Source of the DNA: Candidatus Latescibacterota bacterium
GTDB lineage: Bacteria; Latescibacterota; UBA2968; GCA-2709665
Direction of reading: 5' to 3'
Assembly (NCBI GenBank): GCA_965205485.1
Contig: OZ242180.1
Location: 672,001-736,000, forward strand
Length of the DNA stretch: 64,000 nucleotides
Under the pieces are notes generated by a model. That model worked only from the letters and a program-made list of their open reading frames with translations, did no database searches and was not told the DNA's origin. A program made the position numbers and the translations under genes. Positions 28,986 to 35,749 of the stretch are shown here, piece after piece (position 1 is the first letter of the stretch; each line of letters begins with the position of its first letter).

Positions 28986-30663
28986 TCGATACGATCTGAC
29001 CGGGTCCAGGGTCCTCTTTCTGGCGGGACTGTCTGCCTTTTTTGTGTCTTTTCTGTTCTATCCGCTCTGGTACGCCGTTGTGCGAGCGCTGTGGGTGAAC
29101 GGAGAATTCTCGCTCGTTTTCTTTGAGTTGATGGCAGGCAATCCGGTCTACACGGAAATGATTCTGAACAGCTTCCGCCTCGGCATGTTCACCACAATCG
29201 CAACGACACTGCTGAGCCTTCCCGTCGCATTCCTGCTGGTACGATATGACTTCAGGGGCAAGAACGTCCTCAACGGTCTGATCCTGGTGCCCATGGTCCT
29301 CCCGCCGTTCGTGGGCGCGATCGGGATGAAACAGATGTTCGCCCGCTTCGGATCAATCAACCTTCTGCTGCTCGAGCTGGGTATCGTCGACCAGCCCATC
29401 GACTGGTTCGGCGGCGGGTTTACGGGTGTGGTCATTCTGCAGGTGCTGCACCTCTATCCCATTATGTTCCTGAACGTGGCCGCGGCGCTGGCGAACATCG
29501 ACCCCAGCCTCGAAGAGGCCGCCCGCAACATGGGGGCCCGAGGTTTCAGGCTGTTTCGAACCGTGACCTTTCCGCTGATGTTGCCTGGCTATTTCGCGGG
29601 TGCGATCATTGTTTTCATCTGGGCGTTTACCGACCTTGGTACACCGCTGATCTTCAACTATCGCCAGGTGGTGATGGTCGAGATATTCAACGCAATATCA
29701 GATATCAACGAAAATCCAATGGCGTATGCGCTCGTGGTTTTTCTGTTGTTGCTGACCGTGTTGTTTTTCTACCTGTCCAAGCTGATGCTGGGCAAGGGAC
29801 GGTACGAAATGGTTGCACGGGGACACGTGGGATCGGCCGTGCGCCGTGCTACGCCAGGGATGACCGCGTTTATCTACGGAGTAATGATCTCACTGACAGC
29901 CATCGCGCTGATCCCTCACCTGAGCGTATTCCTGACCTCGATCTCAGAGCGCTGGTTCATGTCGATCTGGCCGCAGGAAATCACAGGCAAGTACTATCCG
30001 CTCGTATATCGGCACCCGATCGCGGGCCCCAGTGTAACCATGAGCCTGATGCTGAGTTCTCTAAGTACGATTTGCGACGTGGTACTCGGCATATCCATAG
30101 CCTATCTGCTTGCCCGCACCCGGATCCCGTTCCGAGGCGCGCTGGATGCGGTCGCAATGCTGCCCCTGGCATTGCCTGGCCCGGTGCTGGCTTTCGGGTA
30201 TCTGGCCGGGTATTCCGGCACCTTTCTGGATGCAAGACACAATCCGGTGCCTCTGCTGGTTATCGCATACGCGGTGAGACGCCTGCCGTATATGGTCAGG
30301 TCTGCCTACGCCGGATTCCAGCAAAGCAGTGTCGCCCTTGAAGAAGCGGCCAGGAATCTGGGCGCTTCTCCCCTGCGCACGACTTTGCAGATTACCTTCC
30401 CGCTCATTCTCGCGAATCTGGTCGCGGGCGCCATTCTCTGTTTTTCCTTTGCCATGCTGGAAGTCAGCGACAGCCTGATACTTGCGTTGAAGACGCAGTA
30501 TTACCCCATTACCAAGGCCATCTACGCGCTGATGGGCAGGATTGCGGATGGGCCATACATCGCCAGCGCGATGGGGATGCTGGGCATGCTGCTTCTCATG
30601 CTCAGCCTCTTCCTGGCAGGACGCTTCCTGGGCCGGCGCATGGGGGAGTTGTTCCGTGCGTAG
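28969..30663 (+). CDS. ABC transporter permease (FbpB/ThiP-like, two EAA loops)
   Basis: Two LEEAARN.GA motifs and many TM segments; GTG start near 28969. Confidence 0.9.
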   Translation: MKTLLDRYDLTGSRVLFLAGLSAFFVSFLFYPLWYAVVRALWVNGEFSLVFFELMAGNPVYTEMILNSFRLGMFTTIATTLLSLPVAFLLVRYDFRGKNVLNGLILVPMVLPPFVGAIGMKQMFARFGSINLLLLELGIVDQPIDWFGGGFTGVVILQVLHLYPIMFLNVAAALANIDPSLEEAARNMGARGFRLFRTVTFPLMLPGYFAGAIIVFIWAFTDLGTPLIFNYRQVVMVEIFNAISDINENPMAYALVVFLLLLTVLFFYLSKLMLGKGRYEMVARGHVGSAVRRATPGMTAFIYGVMISLTAIALIPHLSVFLTSISERWFMSIWPQEITGKYYPLVYRHPIAGPSVTMSLMLSSLSTICDVVLGISIAYLLARTRIPFRGALDAVAMLPLALPGPVLAFGYLAGYSGTFLDARHNPVPLLVIAYAVRRLPYMVRSAYAGFQQSSVALEEAARNLGASPLRTTLQITFPLILANLVAGAILCFSFAMLEVSDSLILALKTQYYPITKAIYALMGRIADGPYIASAMGMLGMLLLMLSLFLAGRFLGRRMGELFRA

Positions 30664-30682
30664 CAAAAGGAGAACATTGGAG

Positions 30683-31618
30683 ATGGTCTATATCGCTGTG
30701 ATCGTCCTGTTGATGCTCGCGGTTATATTCACTCTGACGCGTGAACGGGGAACGCGAGGTAGAGAGATTCCGGAAGGAGACGATGCACTGGCCGCAGACA
30801 TGGCGGACCTGGTGATCGAAGGCCGGAAGGAGTTCCTGCCCGTTGCCAGCCACCCGGTTTTGGAGGGTGTGCTTCGCGAATTGATGGACCGCCTGGGGAT
30901 AGAAGCAGAGCAGGTACTGGTCAATCGAGGCTTTGCGCGAACCGCGGGCGTGACACGCGTGGATGACGAAAGTACCAGAATTCTGAGGGTATTCGATCCT
31001 GCAGAAAACATGATGCAGGTTGTAGAACGGGCGTTTCTCGTGGGAATTCAGTTGGCGCGCGCCGACGATGACTACGCCGGTGTGGGCGATGACCACCTGG
31101 ACCTCGAGGCGCTGGTACGCAAGGCCGAAGCCATTGAAATGGATCTGTTCGGCGACGGGAAGCGCGATCGTTACGTATTCTACGGGAAGGCTGCCCTGGC
31201 GCTGCAGGATATGCTTCAGGATGAAAGAGAAGCCGCGCGACGGGAAGTCCTGCGAGGACTGCTGGAGATGGTCGACGCACAGATCAATGCCTGCCAGGAG
31301 GCGCTGGACAGGTCGATGGCGTACGTCCCCGAGCCGGATACGTTGAGGTGGGGCGACCGGAGGGATCGGCAGTTGTATTATTTCAAGATGGGCGTAACGA
31401 ATTCACTGAGACGAAGCGGACAGTTGGAGAGCCTGGGACATCTCTACCGGTACCGCGGGGTGAATTACGACGTCCTGGAAGCATATGACCTGGCGGCCCA
31501 GGAATGTCCGCAACTCTTCGCGGCGGATGTTATCGGGATCGATGGATTGCTGCGACTGGCGTCGGGAGAGGTCCGGGCGTTGGCGCGGAAGTCGCTGCCG
31601 GATGGCGGAAGGCGTTAG
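30683..31618 (+). CDS. Hypothetical membrane-anchored protein
   Basis: N-terminal TM helix, AAGGAG SD, helical body; no family recognised. Confidence 0.7.
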   Translation: MVYIAVIVLLMLAVIFTLTRERGTRGREIPEGDDALAADMADLVIEGRKEFLPVASHPVLEGVLRELMDRLGIEAEQVLVNRGFARTAGVTRVDDESTRILRVFDPAENMMQVVERAFLVGIQLARADDDYAGVGDDHLDLEALVRKAEAIEMDLFGDGKRDRYVFYGKAALALQDMLQDEREAARREVLRGLLEMVDAQINACQEALDRSMAYVPEPDTLRWGDRRDRQLYYFKMGVTNSLRRSGQLESLGHLYRYRGVNYDVLEAYDLAAQECPQLFAADVIGIDGLLRLASGEVRALARKSLPDGGRR

Positions 31619-31646
31619 TGTACTGTTTCGGAGTACAATGAGCGAA

Positions 31647-31678
31647 AGCCGCCACGCGTGCGTGGCGGCTCTTTTTTT
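31647..31678 (+). terminator. Intrinsic terminator (probably bidirectional)
   Basis: agccgccacg-cgtg-cgtggcggct followed by c and T7. Confidence 0.85.
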
Positions 31679-31957
31679 CTACGTTGCCCTGCGGGCATTT
31701 TCGTAATAGGGACGAACGCGTTCGATGACCTCCGTATCGAGTTTGCATTCAGACACGATTTTCGTGAACTCCTCTGCCGGCAAGCCGAGTTCCTCCAGGA
31801 ACTTCTGGTCGGCCGGTCAGGGGTAGACGTAGTCGCCGATGTTGTTCTGCAGCATCGCCCGGGCCTTGTCCGTAATCCTCGGCAGCCATGGGATGCCGCC
31901 CATCGCAAGCGTTCTGCCCCGCGGGCGGAATTCGATGGATTCGTGCATGGTATCCAT
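31679..31957 (-). CDS. DUF5069-like protein with in-frame UGA (candidate selenoprotein, Sec47)
   Basis: AGGAG SD then ATG 31957: MDTMHESIEFRPRGRTLAMGGIPWLPRITDKARAMLQNNIGDYVYP-UGA-PADQKFLEELGLPAEEFTKIVSECKLDTEVIERVRPYYENARRAT-UAG (92 aa). DUF5069-like similarity continues on both sides of the UGA (31817-31819). Confidence 0.75.
31784..31813 (-). promoter_or_regulatory. Bacterial SECIS-like hairpin
   Basis: After UGA: GCCG-(ACCAGA)-AGUUCC-UGGA-GGAACU-CGGC; the apical loop has G at position 2 and follows 19 nt after the UGA. Confidence 0.65.
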
Positions 31958-32015
31958 CTGTTCGGCTCCTTTCCGAATGGTTGTTGGACAATTTAAAGAA
32001 TACAGGCAACACCGT

Positions 32016-32627
32016 TCAAATGCAAGTCGATATTGACGTCAGGGGCTCACTCTGCCCCGCGCGTTTTTGGTAGATGGACAATGAAGTGCCGCCGTAGGTC
32101 TTCCTGACGTTCAGTGAAAGGCGTTGGCCAGTGTCGGGCATGTCAAGGTCTGCAGCGTGTTGAATGAGGATATGGGCGGAAGAAGCAACGAGGTCCGATC
32201 CGCTCAGGCGGAAGAGTACAGACCGTGCCGCAGGAACGCCGTTCAGTTTCAGCTGGTACGGAGGGTCAACGTAAATGACATCGAAAGGCCGTTGTTCAGA
32301 CTCCAGCAGCGGCAGGAGTCTTTCCGCACGATGGTTCGTGAGGCGGACCTGTTTTTCAGCCCCCCATTCCTTCAGCAGTCTCGAAATAGAGCCGTGCCTG
32401 CGACGATCCGGTTCATTCAGAAGCACGCGTGCCCCGCGGCTGTACGCCTCGAGGCCGATCTGGCCTGAACAGGAAAACAGATCGAGAAAACGAAGATGAT
32501 CGAGCCTGGCGCCCAGAATGTTGAATGCGGCCTCTTTGATCCTTGACGGCGTTACGCGGGCGTTACCGTGTTTTCTGACGTCAAAGGGGATGGTCCGGCC
32601 CTTGAATTTGCCGGTGATAATGCGCAT
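32016..32627 (-). CDS. rsmD: 16S rRNA m2G966 methyltransferase RsmD family
   Basis: MRIITGKFKGR, FLDLFSCSGQIGLEA.SRGA, FDVIYVDPPY, YG.T. Confidence 0.85.
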   Translation of the reverse strand: MRIITGKFKGRTIPFDVRKHGNARVTPSRIKEAAFNILGARLDHLRFLDLFSCSGQIGLEAYSRGARVLLNEPDRRRHGSISRLLKEWGAEKQVRLTNHRAERLLPLLESEQRPFDVIYVDPPYQLKLNGVPAARSVLFRLSGSDLVASSAHILIQHAADLDMPDTGQRLSLNVRKTYGGTSLSIYQKRAGQSEPLTSISTCI

Positions 32628-32703: not shown

Positions 32704-35700
32704 TTAAAACCCCTCCAGTCTGCTCAGGTCCGCAACGCCGTCGGCGAGAGAAGCGATACGCTGAACCAGTGCCAGGCGCGCCTGGCGAAGTACCGGATCT
32801 TCATCCATAACCAGGACATCCTCGAAGAAGCGGTTGATCGGACCGCGAAGGTCGGCCAGCACGATTCCAAGGGTACCGATTCCGTCATCCGAAGTGTCCA
32901 TTAAGCGTTGGGCCGATTCCCATTTCAGATGCAGGGCCCGCGAGGAAGGGTGCGGGTCTGCCTCAGGATTCAGGGAACAGGATTCATCCAGGTCGCGAAC
33001 GATGCGCTTGCATCTGGCGTATGCATGGAGCGTTTCCGTCCAGTTCTCCGAACGGGCCATCTGATCGAGTCCTTCCACAGTGGTCCGGATCCCGAAGGGG
33101 TCGTCGCATCCGCCCCCAAGCGCCGCCTCGACGACGTCATGTCGAAAACCTTCCTCTTTGAGCTGTACGCCCAGACGTCGCAGGATGAACGTATACGCTT
33201 CGTCCAAGCGATTGGCATCAACCCGGATTGGAAGCCCGGCTGCGGCGGCCTTCAGACCCTTCTTCAGTGAAAAGTGACGACGTTTCCCGACAAGGAGCGC
33301 CAACAGGCCCAGCGCATCCCGACGCAACCCGTAGGGGTCGGCGGTCGACCGGGGTTTGATTCCGGCGCAGAACAGGCCGGCCAGGCTGTCCAGCCGGTCG
33401 GCGATGGAGACCGCGAACCCGGATTCGCCTGAAGGCAGCATATCGCCGGGAAACCGGGGAAGGTAGTGTTCCTGGATGGCTGTCGCCACTTCATCGGTCT
33501 CCTTCGACAACAAGGCGTAGTACCGGCCCATCACGCCCTGAAGGGACGTCATCTCCACGACCATACCGGTGGCCAGATCGGCTTTGCACAGGCGGGCGGC
33601 CCGTTTGGCCGTGGTCATATCCCCTTCCTTGAGGTCCAGAAACGACCCGACGACAGGAAGCAGTTGCTCGACTCGAACGCTCTTGTCCCTCACGGAGCCC
33701 AGTTCTTCCTGGAACGTGAGCGTATCCAGACGCGGCAGGTAGTCCTCCAGGGCTTTCTTGCCGTCTTCCCTGTAGAAGAAGGCGGCGTCCGCATATCTGG
33801 CGCGAACAACATTCTCGTTCCCCCTGACGACTGGATCGGGATCGGTCGGCCGGCCGTTGGACACGGCCACGAACCAGGGCAGCAGCCGACCTGTTTCCGG
33901 GTGCGCCACGGGAAAGCAGCGCTGGTGCTTTTTAAGTACGGTGACCAGGACCTCTTCGGGAAGTTCGAGATGCGATTCGTCGAAACCGCCGCGCAGCGCG
34001 AAAGGCGCTTCGACCAGGTCGGTCACTTCGTCGAGCAGTTCGGGATCTTCCGGAACGCTGCCGCCGACCTCGCGCGCGCGCTCGAGTACCTGATTCCGTA
34101 TGGTTTCCCTTCGCCGTTCGCGGTTGACGATCAGGCCCAGTTCTTCCATCTGCGGGCGATAGGCATCGGCGGACGACAACTGAACGGGCGGGTCGCCATC
34201 GGGCCTCAATCCGTGGCTGGTACGTCCACTCCGGATCCCTGCGAATGGAAACGATATTATCCGGCTTCCGAAAAGGGCGACAATCCAGCGCAGAGGACGG
34301 GGATAGGCGAACCCGTCGGAGTCCCAGCGCATCGTCTTGGGAAAGTTCAATCCGGCGATCAGCCCCGGAAGGAGTTCGGTCAGGACGTCCGGCGTCTCAA
34401 GTCCGGGTTCGTGGCGCCGTGCATAGACATATTCAACGCCCTTGTCGTCTTTCCTGTGTTCAACCGCACAGGTAGAGATGCCCTGACCGCGGCAGAACCC
34501 TTCCAGAGCCCGTGTCGGTTTGCCGTCGTCGTCGAAAGCGGCCCTGACAGCCGGACCGCGTACCTCGCGTTCCCGGTCCGGCTGGCGTCCCTGTAGATTC
34601 CTGACGCGTGCCACAAGCCGTCTGGGCGTGCCCGTTACTTCGATTTCGTCACAGCCAAGCCTCTGTTCCCGAAGAAGCTCGGGAAGGGACCGTTCGAGTT
34701 GCTCGATGCCGGACCGCACGTCATTGGGCGGCAGCTCTTCGGACCCGATCTCCAGAAGCAGGTCGGCGCGCTCCTGTGAACCATCGCCCCGATCGGGTTT
34801 CGGGGCGTCCGCCTCACCGGTTTTCCTGATGAGGGGGTGGCCTGACGCTTCACGCTGTTTTAAAAACCCCTCGGCGACCTGCCTCGCGAGGTCGCGGATC
34901 CGGGCGAAGTACCGCGCACGCTCGGTTACGCCGACGGCGCCACGGGTGTCGAGCAGGTTGAAGGTGTGAGAGCAGCGCAATACGTAGTCATGTGCGGGAA
35001 TCACGAGTCCGCGGTCTATAGCGGCTTTCGCTTCATCATGGAACAGATCGAACATGGACTGCAGGCGCCCGACGTCCGCGTGGTGGAACTCGTAATTGCA
35101 ATACTCCACTTCCTGCTGCCGGAGAATGTCGCCGTAGGAGACCCGTTCGTTCCAGCGGAGTTGCCAGACTTCGCGGACGTCCTGCACGTACATGGCGATA
35201 CGTTCCATGCCGTAGGTGATCTCCACGGGTACCGGGTCGAGCTGCTGGCCTCCGGCCTGCTGGAAATACGTGAACTGGGTGATTTCCAGGCCGTCTAGCC
35301 AGACCTCCCAGCCCAGGCCCCACGCACCCAGGCCGGGCGATTCCCAGTTGTCCTCGACGAAACGGATGTCGTGGCGCCTCCGGTTGAGACCCAACGCCTC
35401 CAGGCTGTCCAGGTAGAGTTCCTGGGGGTTGCCCGGCTCGGGCTTGAGAACAACCTGGTACTGCGTGTGCATCTGCATCCTGTTCGGGTTCTCGCCGAAT
35501 CGACCGTCGTCGGGTCGAAAGCTGGGTTCGACGTAGGCCACGTTCCAGGGCTCCGGCCCCAGCACCCGAAGTGCGGTACCCGGGTTCCATGTACCCGCGC
35601 CCACCTTTTCGCTGAGCGGCTGCCAGATAACACAACCGTGATCCGCCCAGAATCGTTCGAGGCGAAGAATGAGTTCCTGGAAACTCGGTGCGGCCTTCAC
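32704..35700 (-). CDS. glyQS: Glycine--tRNA ligase, fused alpha+beta subunits
   Basis: Alpha motifs ([36 protein letters not shown]) continue in one ORF into beta motifs ([28 protein letters not shown]). GTG 35700 has a purine-rich SD; track start is 35748. Confidence 0.95.
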
Positions 35701-35749
35701 GGGCCTTTTCCTTTCCGTGTTCCCGGCGGACGATTTCCAAATGGGCAAT

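Follow-up and report, generated by a model that had tools for sequence, protein, structure and literature searches.

We analyzed a 64,000-nucleotide (nt) stretch of contig OZ242180.1 from a Candidatus Latescibacterota bacterium (assembly GCA_965205485.1), hereafter the window, and focused on a 92-codon frame on its minus strand, 31957..31679, which contains a single in-frame TGA. A preliminary description of this DNA, made from its letters alone, had proposed that the frame encodes a DUF5069-like selenoprotein in which the UGA at codon 47 specifies selenocysteine (Sec) and is followed by a hairpin resembling a selenocysteine insertion sequence (SECIS) element. Judging from comparative sequence evidence, we put the probability at about 0.92 that 31957..31679 is a genuine gene for a selenoprotein, belonging to an organism that uses Sec and carrying a canonical bacterial SECIS (bSECIS) element inside its open reading frame (ORF). 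The features of the gene itself are as follows.

31957..31679, minus strand: predicted selenoprotein gene of the short DUF5069 family, 92 codons, with ATG at 31957, the putative Sec codon at position 47 and TAG at 31681-31679
31970-31966, minus strand: Shine-Dalgarno sequence AGGAG, 8 nt upstream of the ATG, from direct reading of the sequence
31819-31817, minus strand: UGA codon 47, probably read as selenocysteine
31788..31803, minus strand: predicted bSECIS core hairpin, with stem AGUUCC (31803-31798) / GGAACU (31793-31788) and loop UGGA (31797-31794)
31777..31816, minus strand: extended outer stem, CCGGC (31816-31812) / GCCGG (31781-31777), genus-specific, with arms that are not conserved beyond the genus

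A UGA codon shared with relatives

Read through the UGA, the frame gives MDTMHESIEFRPRGRTLAMGGIPWLPRITDKARAMLQNNIGDYVYP-UGA-PADQKFLEELG...RRAT. The Shine-Dalgarno sequence, the start, the frame through the UGA and the UAG stop were all as the preliminary description had given them, as were the position of the UGA, the 19-nt distance to the hairpin loop and the G in the second position of that loop. The preliminary description had also put each half of the gene below 60 amino acids (aa), too short for the ORF track. The N-terminal half corresponds to a listed ORF of 46 aa; no ORF of at least 40 aa covers the C-terminal half, which contains no start codon from which one of that length could be read.

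We searched 61 related genomes and 168 phylum genomes (Latescibacterota by record titles) in six frames, reading through stops, and obtained matches in 60 and 124 of them, respectively. By row count of the search, a TGA lay inside the ortholog in 104 of the 168 phylum genomes, at identities down to 38%; 15 phylum genomes held good stop-free orthologs (E 2.5e-24 or better), and 5 gave only weak, paralog-type matches. Seventy loci were parsed, comprising 30 from the 61-genome search and 40 picked to cover all stop-free forms and distant genera. In these, the UGA aligned with a column occupied by Sec or Cys codons only (TGA in 55, TGC/TGT in 15, any other codon in none), with Cys in all 15 parsed stop-free orthologs, and the sequence was conserved on both sides of it. 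The protein alignment comprised 42 of 69 distinct sequences. L073, which ran over a stop, was left out, as was L020, whose sequence extended beyond a genuine TGA stop. Its invariant residues include R13, R15, R27, D30, K31, R33, Y43 and D50, and those 3′ of the UGA are A49, D50, F53, L54, F64 and D74.

A similar picture emerged from relatives with named records, which partially overlap with the phylum genomes. Among the best 80 of 292, which were kept, 49 had TGA and 31 had Cys at the column. Two of these 80 loci, from Poribacteria (L162, L172), carry the TGA together with the same hairpin (AAGUUCC-UGGA-GGAAC), and Cys without the hairpin was seen at four further Poribacteria loci, eight from Chloroflexota, one from Opitutales and two from Bacillota/Clostridia. 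Orthologs with 90-93% identity to the window protein come from records labelled either Gemmatimonadota or Candidatus Latescibacterota (L093, L097, L098 vs. L094, L095).

We also compared the window over 31600-32100 with contigs from four public runs belonging to three studies, a comparison that shows presence only. The contigs of two runs from one study matched the window exactly, which may have been derived from them; the contig from the second study differed from it at 3 positions and that from the third, a 93%-alike relative, at 26 positions over 379 nt. There were no differences in the TGA or the hairpin core in the contigs of any of the four runs, and the stretch holding both (31790-31841) is the gene's most conserved DNA. 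Over these same 52 nt, short high-depth contigs of other organisms from sponge and marine metagenomes match the window at 88% or more, and they do so there only, their flanks being unlike those of the window.

These results bear on the possibility that the locus is a pseudogene with a lone nonsense mutation, or that the TGA is really a TGC or TGT obscured by a sequencing or assembly error. The state of the public protein sets is compatible with such an account: gene callers truncate the Sec forms, so that P0176, P0018 and P0027 are half-length N-terminal fragments ending ...DY[VI]YP, and 11 of the best 150 of 691 library hits stop exactly one residue before the column. Yet the TGA is common to 104 genomes, down to 38% identity, with conserved protein downstream, the contigs of three studies agree on it, and the hairpin 3′ of it is constrained at synonymous sites, as described below. 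A lone nonsense mutation is contradicted by the relatives, which share both the UGA and a conserved, covarying hairpin, and we assign a pseudogene or a sequencing or assembly error a very small probability.

The hairpin and the selenocysteine machinery

In the published bSECIS model (PMC13188914), the apical loop has 3-9 nt with a G in its first two positions, the upper stem has 4-16 base pairs (bp), the loop lies 16-37 nt from the UGA, and the minimum free energy (MFE) is at or below -7.5 kcal/mol. In the window, the stem begins 13 nt past the UGA and has 6-7 bp, the spacing from UGA to loop is 19 nt, and the loop has G at positions 2 and 3, so loop, stem, G position and spacing all lie within the model. 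The energy lies within it for the 42-nt form with the outer stem (MFE -17.6 kcal/mol) and for the 53-nt region (-24.9 kcal/mol, z -2.4, with 2 of 200 shuffles as low). The SECIS-like hairpin of the preliminary description is thus in agreement with the published model; it is also conserved with the UGA and has decayed in the Cys forms.

The loop UGGA is invariant in all 55 Sec forms. Among the distinct Sec-form sequences, pairing at the six inner positions is intact in all but one of 312 cells (311). Across the Sec forms, 91.5% of cells are paired vs. 81.0% in shuffles, with none of 500 shuffles reaching the observed value. Pair 21-34 is G-C in 28 of the distinct sequences, C-G in 24 and unpaired in none, and pair 20-35 is A-U in 23, G-U in 21 and G-C in 8. 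The covariation score was 0.308, compared with 0.162 in shuffles (0 of 500 reaching it) and at most 0.104 in controls slid by 1-3 columns.

Codon usage offered a control that is independent of the G-C/C-G switch. Within the hairpin, Leu54 is CTG in 55 of 55 Sec forms and Phe53 is TTC in 54 of 55; the invariant Leu25 uses five codons, and Phe10 and Phe64 split 40/15 and 39/16. At position 56, also in the hairpin, the Sec forms have GAA (Glu) in 49 cases, GGA in 6 and GAG never, in a genome of 60% G+C. This freezing of codons in Sec forms is confined to the hairpin. The 15 Cys forms show no such freezing: 8 have TTC and 7 have TTT for Phe53, four codons are used for Leu54, and residues 55-56 are variable (FLEQ, FLQK, FLRE, FLDE). 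Nine of the 15 have lost pair 21-34, and covariation is not above that of shuffles (367 of 500). From the frozen codons in Sec forms and their relaxation in Cys forms, we conclude that the FLEE peptide motif is imposed by the RNA. Two Cys forms within an otherwise Sec-using genus (L035, L038) are single synonymous changes away from the hairpin and look like recent replacements of Sec by Cys.

The components of Sec incorporation are encoded in the same genome. The source genome contains selA (470 bits), the wing-3 domain of selB (73 bits) and tRNA-Sec (73 bits, above the Rfam threshold), all within 3.3 kb, along with selD (363 bits; G000:C1:2394761-2395684, minus strand, outside the window). 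The selD frame has one in-frame TGA, so selenophosphate synthetase appears to be a selenoprotein here. SelA was present in 131 of the 168 phylum genomes and in 102 of the 104 with the UGA form. Seven genomes of the four gene-bearing families gave no SelA match; 2 of them have the UGA form, 3 the Cys form and 2 no ortholog. The three with the Cys form (G097, G098, G059) belong to g18 and g14, the sole genera of the class in which SelA was matched in no genome.

The UGA could, alternatively, be recoded to something other than Sec, either by hairpin-stimulated near-cognate read-through (giving Trp, Cys or Arg) or by a lineage-wide reassignment of TGA. RNA structures 3′ of stop codons can promote read-through, and one public prediction (P0002) has Trp at the codon, so TGA was taken for a Trp codon when genes were called on its contig. 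However, TGA is the commonest true stop in the source genome, closing 2,282 of 3,964 open frames of at least 300 codons, the rsmD-type gene upstream included, and a real TGA stop ends the same gene in several relatives; TGA is therefore not reassigned genome-wide. Moreover, where homologs lack Sec they have Cys in every case, with no instance of Trp, Gly or Arg; the hairpin is of the SelB type (19-nt spacing, small loop with G as its second base); and the UGA form tracks the presence of SelA. In light of this, recoding to another amino acid has only a slim chance of being correct.

Several observations weigh against the selenoprotein assignment. The 18-nt core alone folds at -6.5 kcal/mol, which is weaker than the model threshold of -7.5 kcal/mol, and that threshold is reached only with flanking pairs that are themselves not conserved. 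The G-C/C-G switch largely splits two big clades (families f1/f2/f4 vs. f3) and may stand for a very small number of events; the shuffle statistics therefore exaggerate how independent the changes are. Two genomes with the UGA form lack a SelA match, namely G018 (80% complete) and G099 (81%), each in more than 800 contigs, and among the Poribacteria SelA was found in one of the two genomes with the UGA form and not in the other (G169).

Against this background, the placement of Sec at residue 47 was supported by the tests of the column, the hairpin, the machinery and the independent assemblies, none of which refutes it. The basis for recoding consists of the codon, the hairpin with its evolutionary constraint, and the machinery genes. 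The arrangement is that of bacterial selenoproteins with an in-ORF bSECIS, such as formate dehydrogenase H of E. coli (Zhang and Gladyshev model, summarized in PMC13188914), in which an in-frame UGA is likewise followed by a stem-loop just downstream in the coding region; the 4-nt loop with GG at positions 2-3, the 19-nt spacing, the Cys homologs and the presence of selA, selB, selC and selD in the genome are likewise shared with such proteins. If the standard bacterial mechanism applies, translation would start at ATG 31957, and when UGA codon 47 enters the ribosomal A site, the hairpin would present its apical loop UGGA 19 nt past the UGA. SelB carrying Sec-tRNA(Sec) would then bind the loop, and selenocysteine would be inserted in place of termination, yielding a protein of 92 residues.

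The DUF5069 fold and a possible role of residue 47

With Cys replacing Sec, the read-through protein matched DUF5069 (PF16798) with a score of 51.7 bits (cut-off 27; E 1.3e-13), which bears out the family assignment made in the preliminary description. The match covers only positions 4-74 of the 133 in the profile, the N-terminal half of the domain, indicating a mini-domain of about 90 residues. An AlphaFold2 model built from a 42-sequence alignment (pLDDT 88.1) has four helices, at 25-36, 48-57, 61-70 and 74-91, and no strand of three or more residues. Sec47 is predicted to lie directly before helix 48-57, at its N-terminus.

The ortholog profile also matched PDB entry 3omd (E 1.7e-14), an uncharacterized protein of 145 aa from Leptospirillum rubarum, in which the Sec column is occupied by Cys (Y-N-C-P-L-D). 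Superposition of the predicted fold on 3omd gave a VIA-align Z of 11.3 (root-mean-square deviation 2.6 over 85 aligned residues; the next entry has Z 4.5) and a Foldseek TM of 0.74. The window protein differs from 3omd and from full DUF5069 in its shorter domain and in having Sec instead of Cys. Apart from 3omd, Foldseek found nothing in the PDB at E 0.001 or better, and VIA-align found nothing above Z 4.5 among 48,161 chains; no thioredoxin-fold chain was listed in either search. The fold searches gave no functional lead, and an ESM Atlas search with a natural Cys-form homolog (P0153) gave no usable match.

The fold bears on whether the locus might instead produce two small proteins or undergo regulated truncation, with a 46-residue N-terminal peptide as the main product. 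Bacterial Sec insertion competes with termination, so some truncated product is likely. As the principal outcome, though, truncation has a very slight probability in our estimation: the second half lacks a start codon giving an ORF of at least 40 aa, the Cys forms are one continuous protein of the same length, and the column lies inside a single compact domain both in the AlphaFold model and in 3omd (pLDDT 88, Z 11.3, 85 residues).

To place the column in the wider family, we used a sample of 171 domain hits, made up of the best 150 of 691 library hits and a three-domain paralog from the source genome. The column was covered by 160 of them, with Cys in 117 and Ser in 32; the remaining 11 were the fragments cut at the UGA mentioned above. 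The DUF5069 pattern that the preliminary description had given, with Cys at this column, therefore stands for 117 of the 160 hits, but not for the 32 with Ser. The paralog (G000:C1:1400349-1401593, minus strand, outside the window) is a protein of 437 aa with three tandem DUF5069 domains, an architecture found in most relatives. It has Cys in the middle domain only (Y-N-C-P-I-D), while the outer two read Y-G/A-x-D-S-G-L, with Ser at the column.

The Sec motif of the short family is Y-x-[YF]-P-U-x-A-D, with a local sequence of Y-V-Y-P-U-P-A-D-Q-K in the window, and the residue after U varies (P, G, A, R, S). We consider it about an even bet that Sec47 acts as a reactive nucleophile, in selenol/thiol redox chemistry or in sulfur/selenium transfer. 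In such a scheme, the helix dipole would activate Sec47, which would sit beside a basic pocket with the invariant charged residues R13, R15, R27, D30, K31, R33 and D50 around it, and the absence of a resolving Cys nearby implies that an external thiol partner would be needed. The functional proposal has its own difficulties: there is no UxxC/CxxU motif, nor any Cys within 20 residues on either side of Sec47; neighborhoods differ by clade; and Ser occupies the column in 32 of 160 wider-family hits. A redox role is thus not established; for the redox or metal-binding role suggested in the preliminary description, the one pertinent result is the predicted position of Sec at the N-terminus of a helix.

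A bolder version of this proposal is that DUF5069 constitutes a previously unrecognized class of single-selenol/thiol enzymes with its own all-helical fold, in which Sec47, as an N-cap ringed by invariant Arg, Lys and Asp residues, would have a small anion as its substrate (oxyanion reduction and the carriage of persulfide or selenide being examples), and that it is a core selenoprotein keeping the Sec trait in Latescibacterota and some sponge-associated Poribacteria. We offer this version tentatively and regard it, taken whole, as rather unlikely.

Neighborhood, novelty and significance

The features surrounding the gene in the window are listed here.

32016..32627, minus strand: co-directional rsmD-type methyltransferase gene upstream (PF03602, 116.8 bits), with its own TGA stop and a 58-nt gap to the predicted selenoprotein gene
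32704-35748, minus strand: fused glyQS, an ORF of 1014 aa (Pfam tRNA-synt_2e + tRNA_synt_2f + DALR)
31647..31670, no strand assigned: G+C-rich terminator hairpin between convergent genes (terminator scan and sequence), with its T-run on the plus-strand side
30542-31618, plus strand: convergent ORF of 358 aa, ending 29 nt before the shared G+C-rich hairpin

A Pfam scan agreed with the upstream run of DUF4432, glyQS and rsmD genes that had been described for this locus, identifying the co-directional genes as rsmD-type (PF03602), fused glyQS and a DUF4432 protein. The terminator hairpin reported beside the stop does exist. It serves the convergent gene, however, because the T-run is found on its plus-strand side and only TTT follows on the minus strand. 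The convergent ORF matched no Pfam family, and its single NCBIfam match was a chance-level one to a ribosomally synthesized and post-translationally modified peptide (RiPP) family (17 bits vs. a cut-off of 55). An Rfam scan of 31500-32100 at E up to 10 likewise returned chance-level matches only, the best being ROSE at 26.3 bits (gathering threshold 45) on the other strand.

Across 102 neighboring ORFs at 23 loci, no partner was common to the different clades. The rsmD gene was upstream only in the order of the window, where the neighbor scan found it at L015, L030, L035 and L039. In family f3, the largest of the class, two conserved genes in the same orientation immediately precede the Sec gene and encode proteins of 124 aa and about 350 aa (L067:2760-4174, minus strand; L075:1010-2484, plus strand; also L061, L072 and L085). 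Between L067 and L075, the 124-aa protein has 60% identity and the ~350-aa protein 31%, the latter containing a kinase-like D-x-N-A-R-N-I stretch. Neither protein of the pair had a Pfam match at E 1e-5 or better, and no NCBIfam family was found for the six ORFs scanned (from L061, L067, L075 and L085). In Poribacteria, one Sec form is immediately preceded by a gene for a glutaredoxin-fused pyridine-nucleotide disulfide oxidoreductase (L172:1750-2973, plus strand), and pheA (chorismate mutase/prephenate dehydratase) lies 3′ of the gene at L143, L165 and L172, followed by an aminotransferase at L143 and L165.

The preliminary description had named DUF5069 as no established selenoprotein family, and this holds across the catalogues and literature that we searched. 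PF16798/DUF5069 is not among the 119 families and subfamilies in Table 1 of a May 2026 review (PMC13188914), and NCBIfam release 20 (June 2026), which holds curated selenoprotein models, gave no matches at E up to 1. The portion of PMC12013277 that we consulted does not include short DUF5069 among the nine new families of deep-Sep. The terms "DUF5069" and "PF16798" occurred in no paper found by a search that left the supplementary tables of other selenoproteome papers outside its reach, where an earlier listing is possible. Literature on selenoproteins that mentions Latescibacter or Poribacteria held nothing on short DUF5069, and "3OMD", as far as titles and the beginnings of abstracts indicate, is used as an abbreviation for unrelated compounds.

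Among the closest parallels are the hypothetical selenoproteins from metagenomes (GOS_A/B/C, OS_HP3-5 and deep-Sep DG/DW/DF), which are likewise small, without known function and recognized by a UGA/Cys pair with a bSECIS. The two GOS_A sequences in the supplement of PMC2398784 are unrelated to short DUF5069, and the motifs of short DUF5069 occur in none of that paper's supplementary sequence files. GOS_B, GOS_C, OS_HP3-5, DG, DW and DF carry NCBIfam/Pfam accessions (PMC13188914), whereas short DUF5069 matches none of these and only PF16798. Unlike most families in Table 1 of PMC13188914, which are thioredoxin-like with UxxC/CxxU motifs, short DUF5069 is predicted to be all-helical and to have a single Sec and no nearby Cys. 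As far as could be checked, short DUF5069 is therefore a probable selenoprotein family that had not previously been catalogued.

The assignment has consequences for annotation. The Cys forms are publicly named "DUF5069 domain-containing protein" or "hypothetical protein," and in public protein sets the gene is cut at the UGA or given Trp, an error that concerns more than 100 genomes. It would also add to the bacterial selenoproteome a well-supported family that lacks UxxC/CxxU and is predicted to be all-helical rather than thioredoxin-like. Few signs of a catalytic or redox residue are as reliable as a Sec/Cys pair, and the column would mark the functional residue of DUF5069, a family with a crystal structure. 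The closely related Sec and Cys forms provide a natural experiment, in which the RNA element dictates FLEE and the constraint relaxes after Sec is lost. Finally, one class of Latescibacterota has the gene in almost all of its members, and the protein may thus help maintain the use of selenocysteine there.

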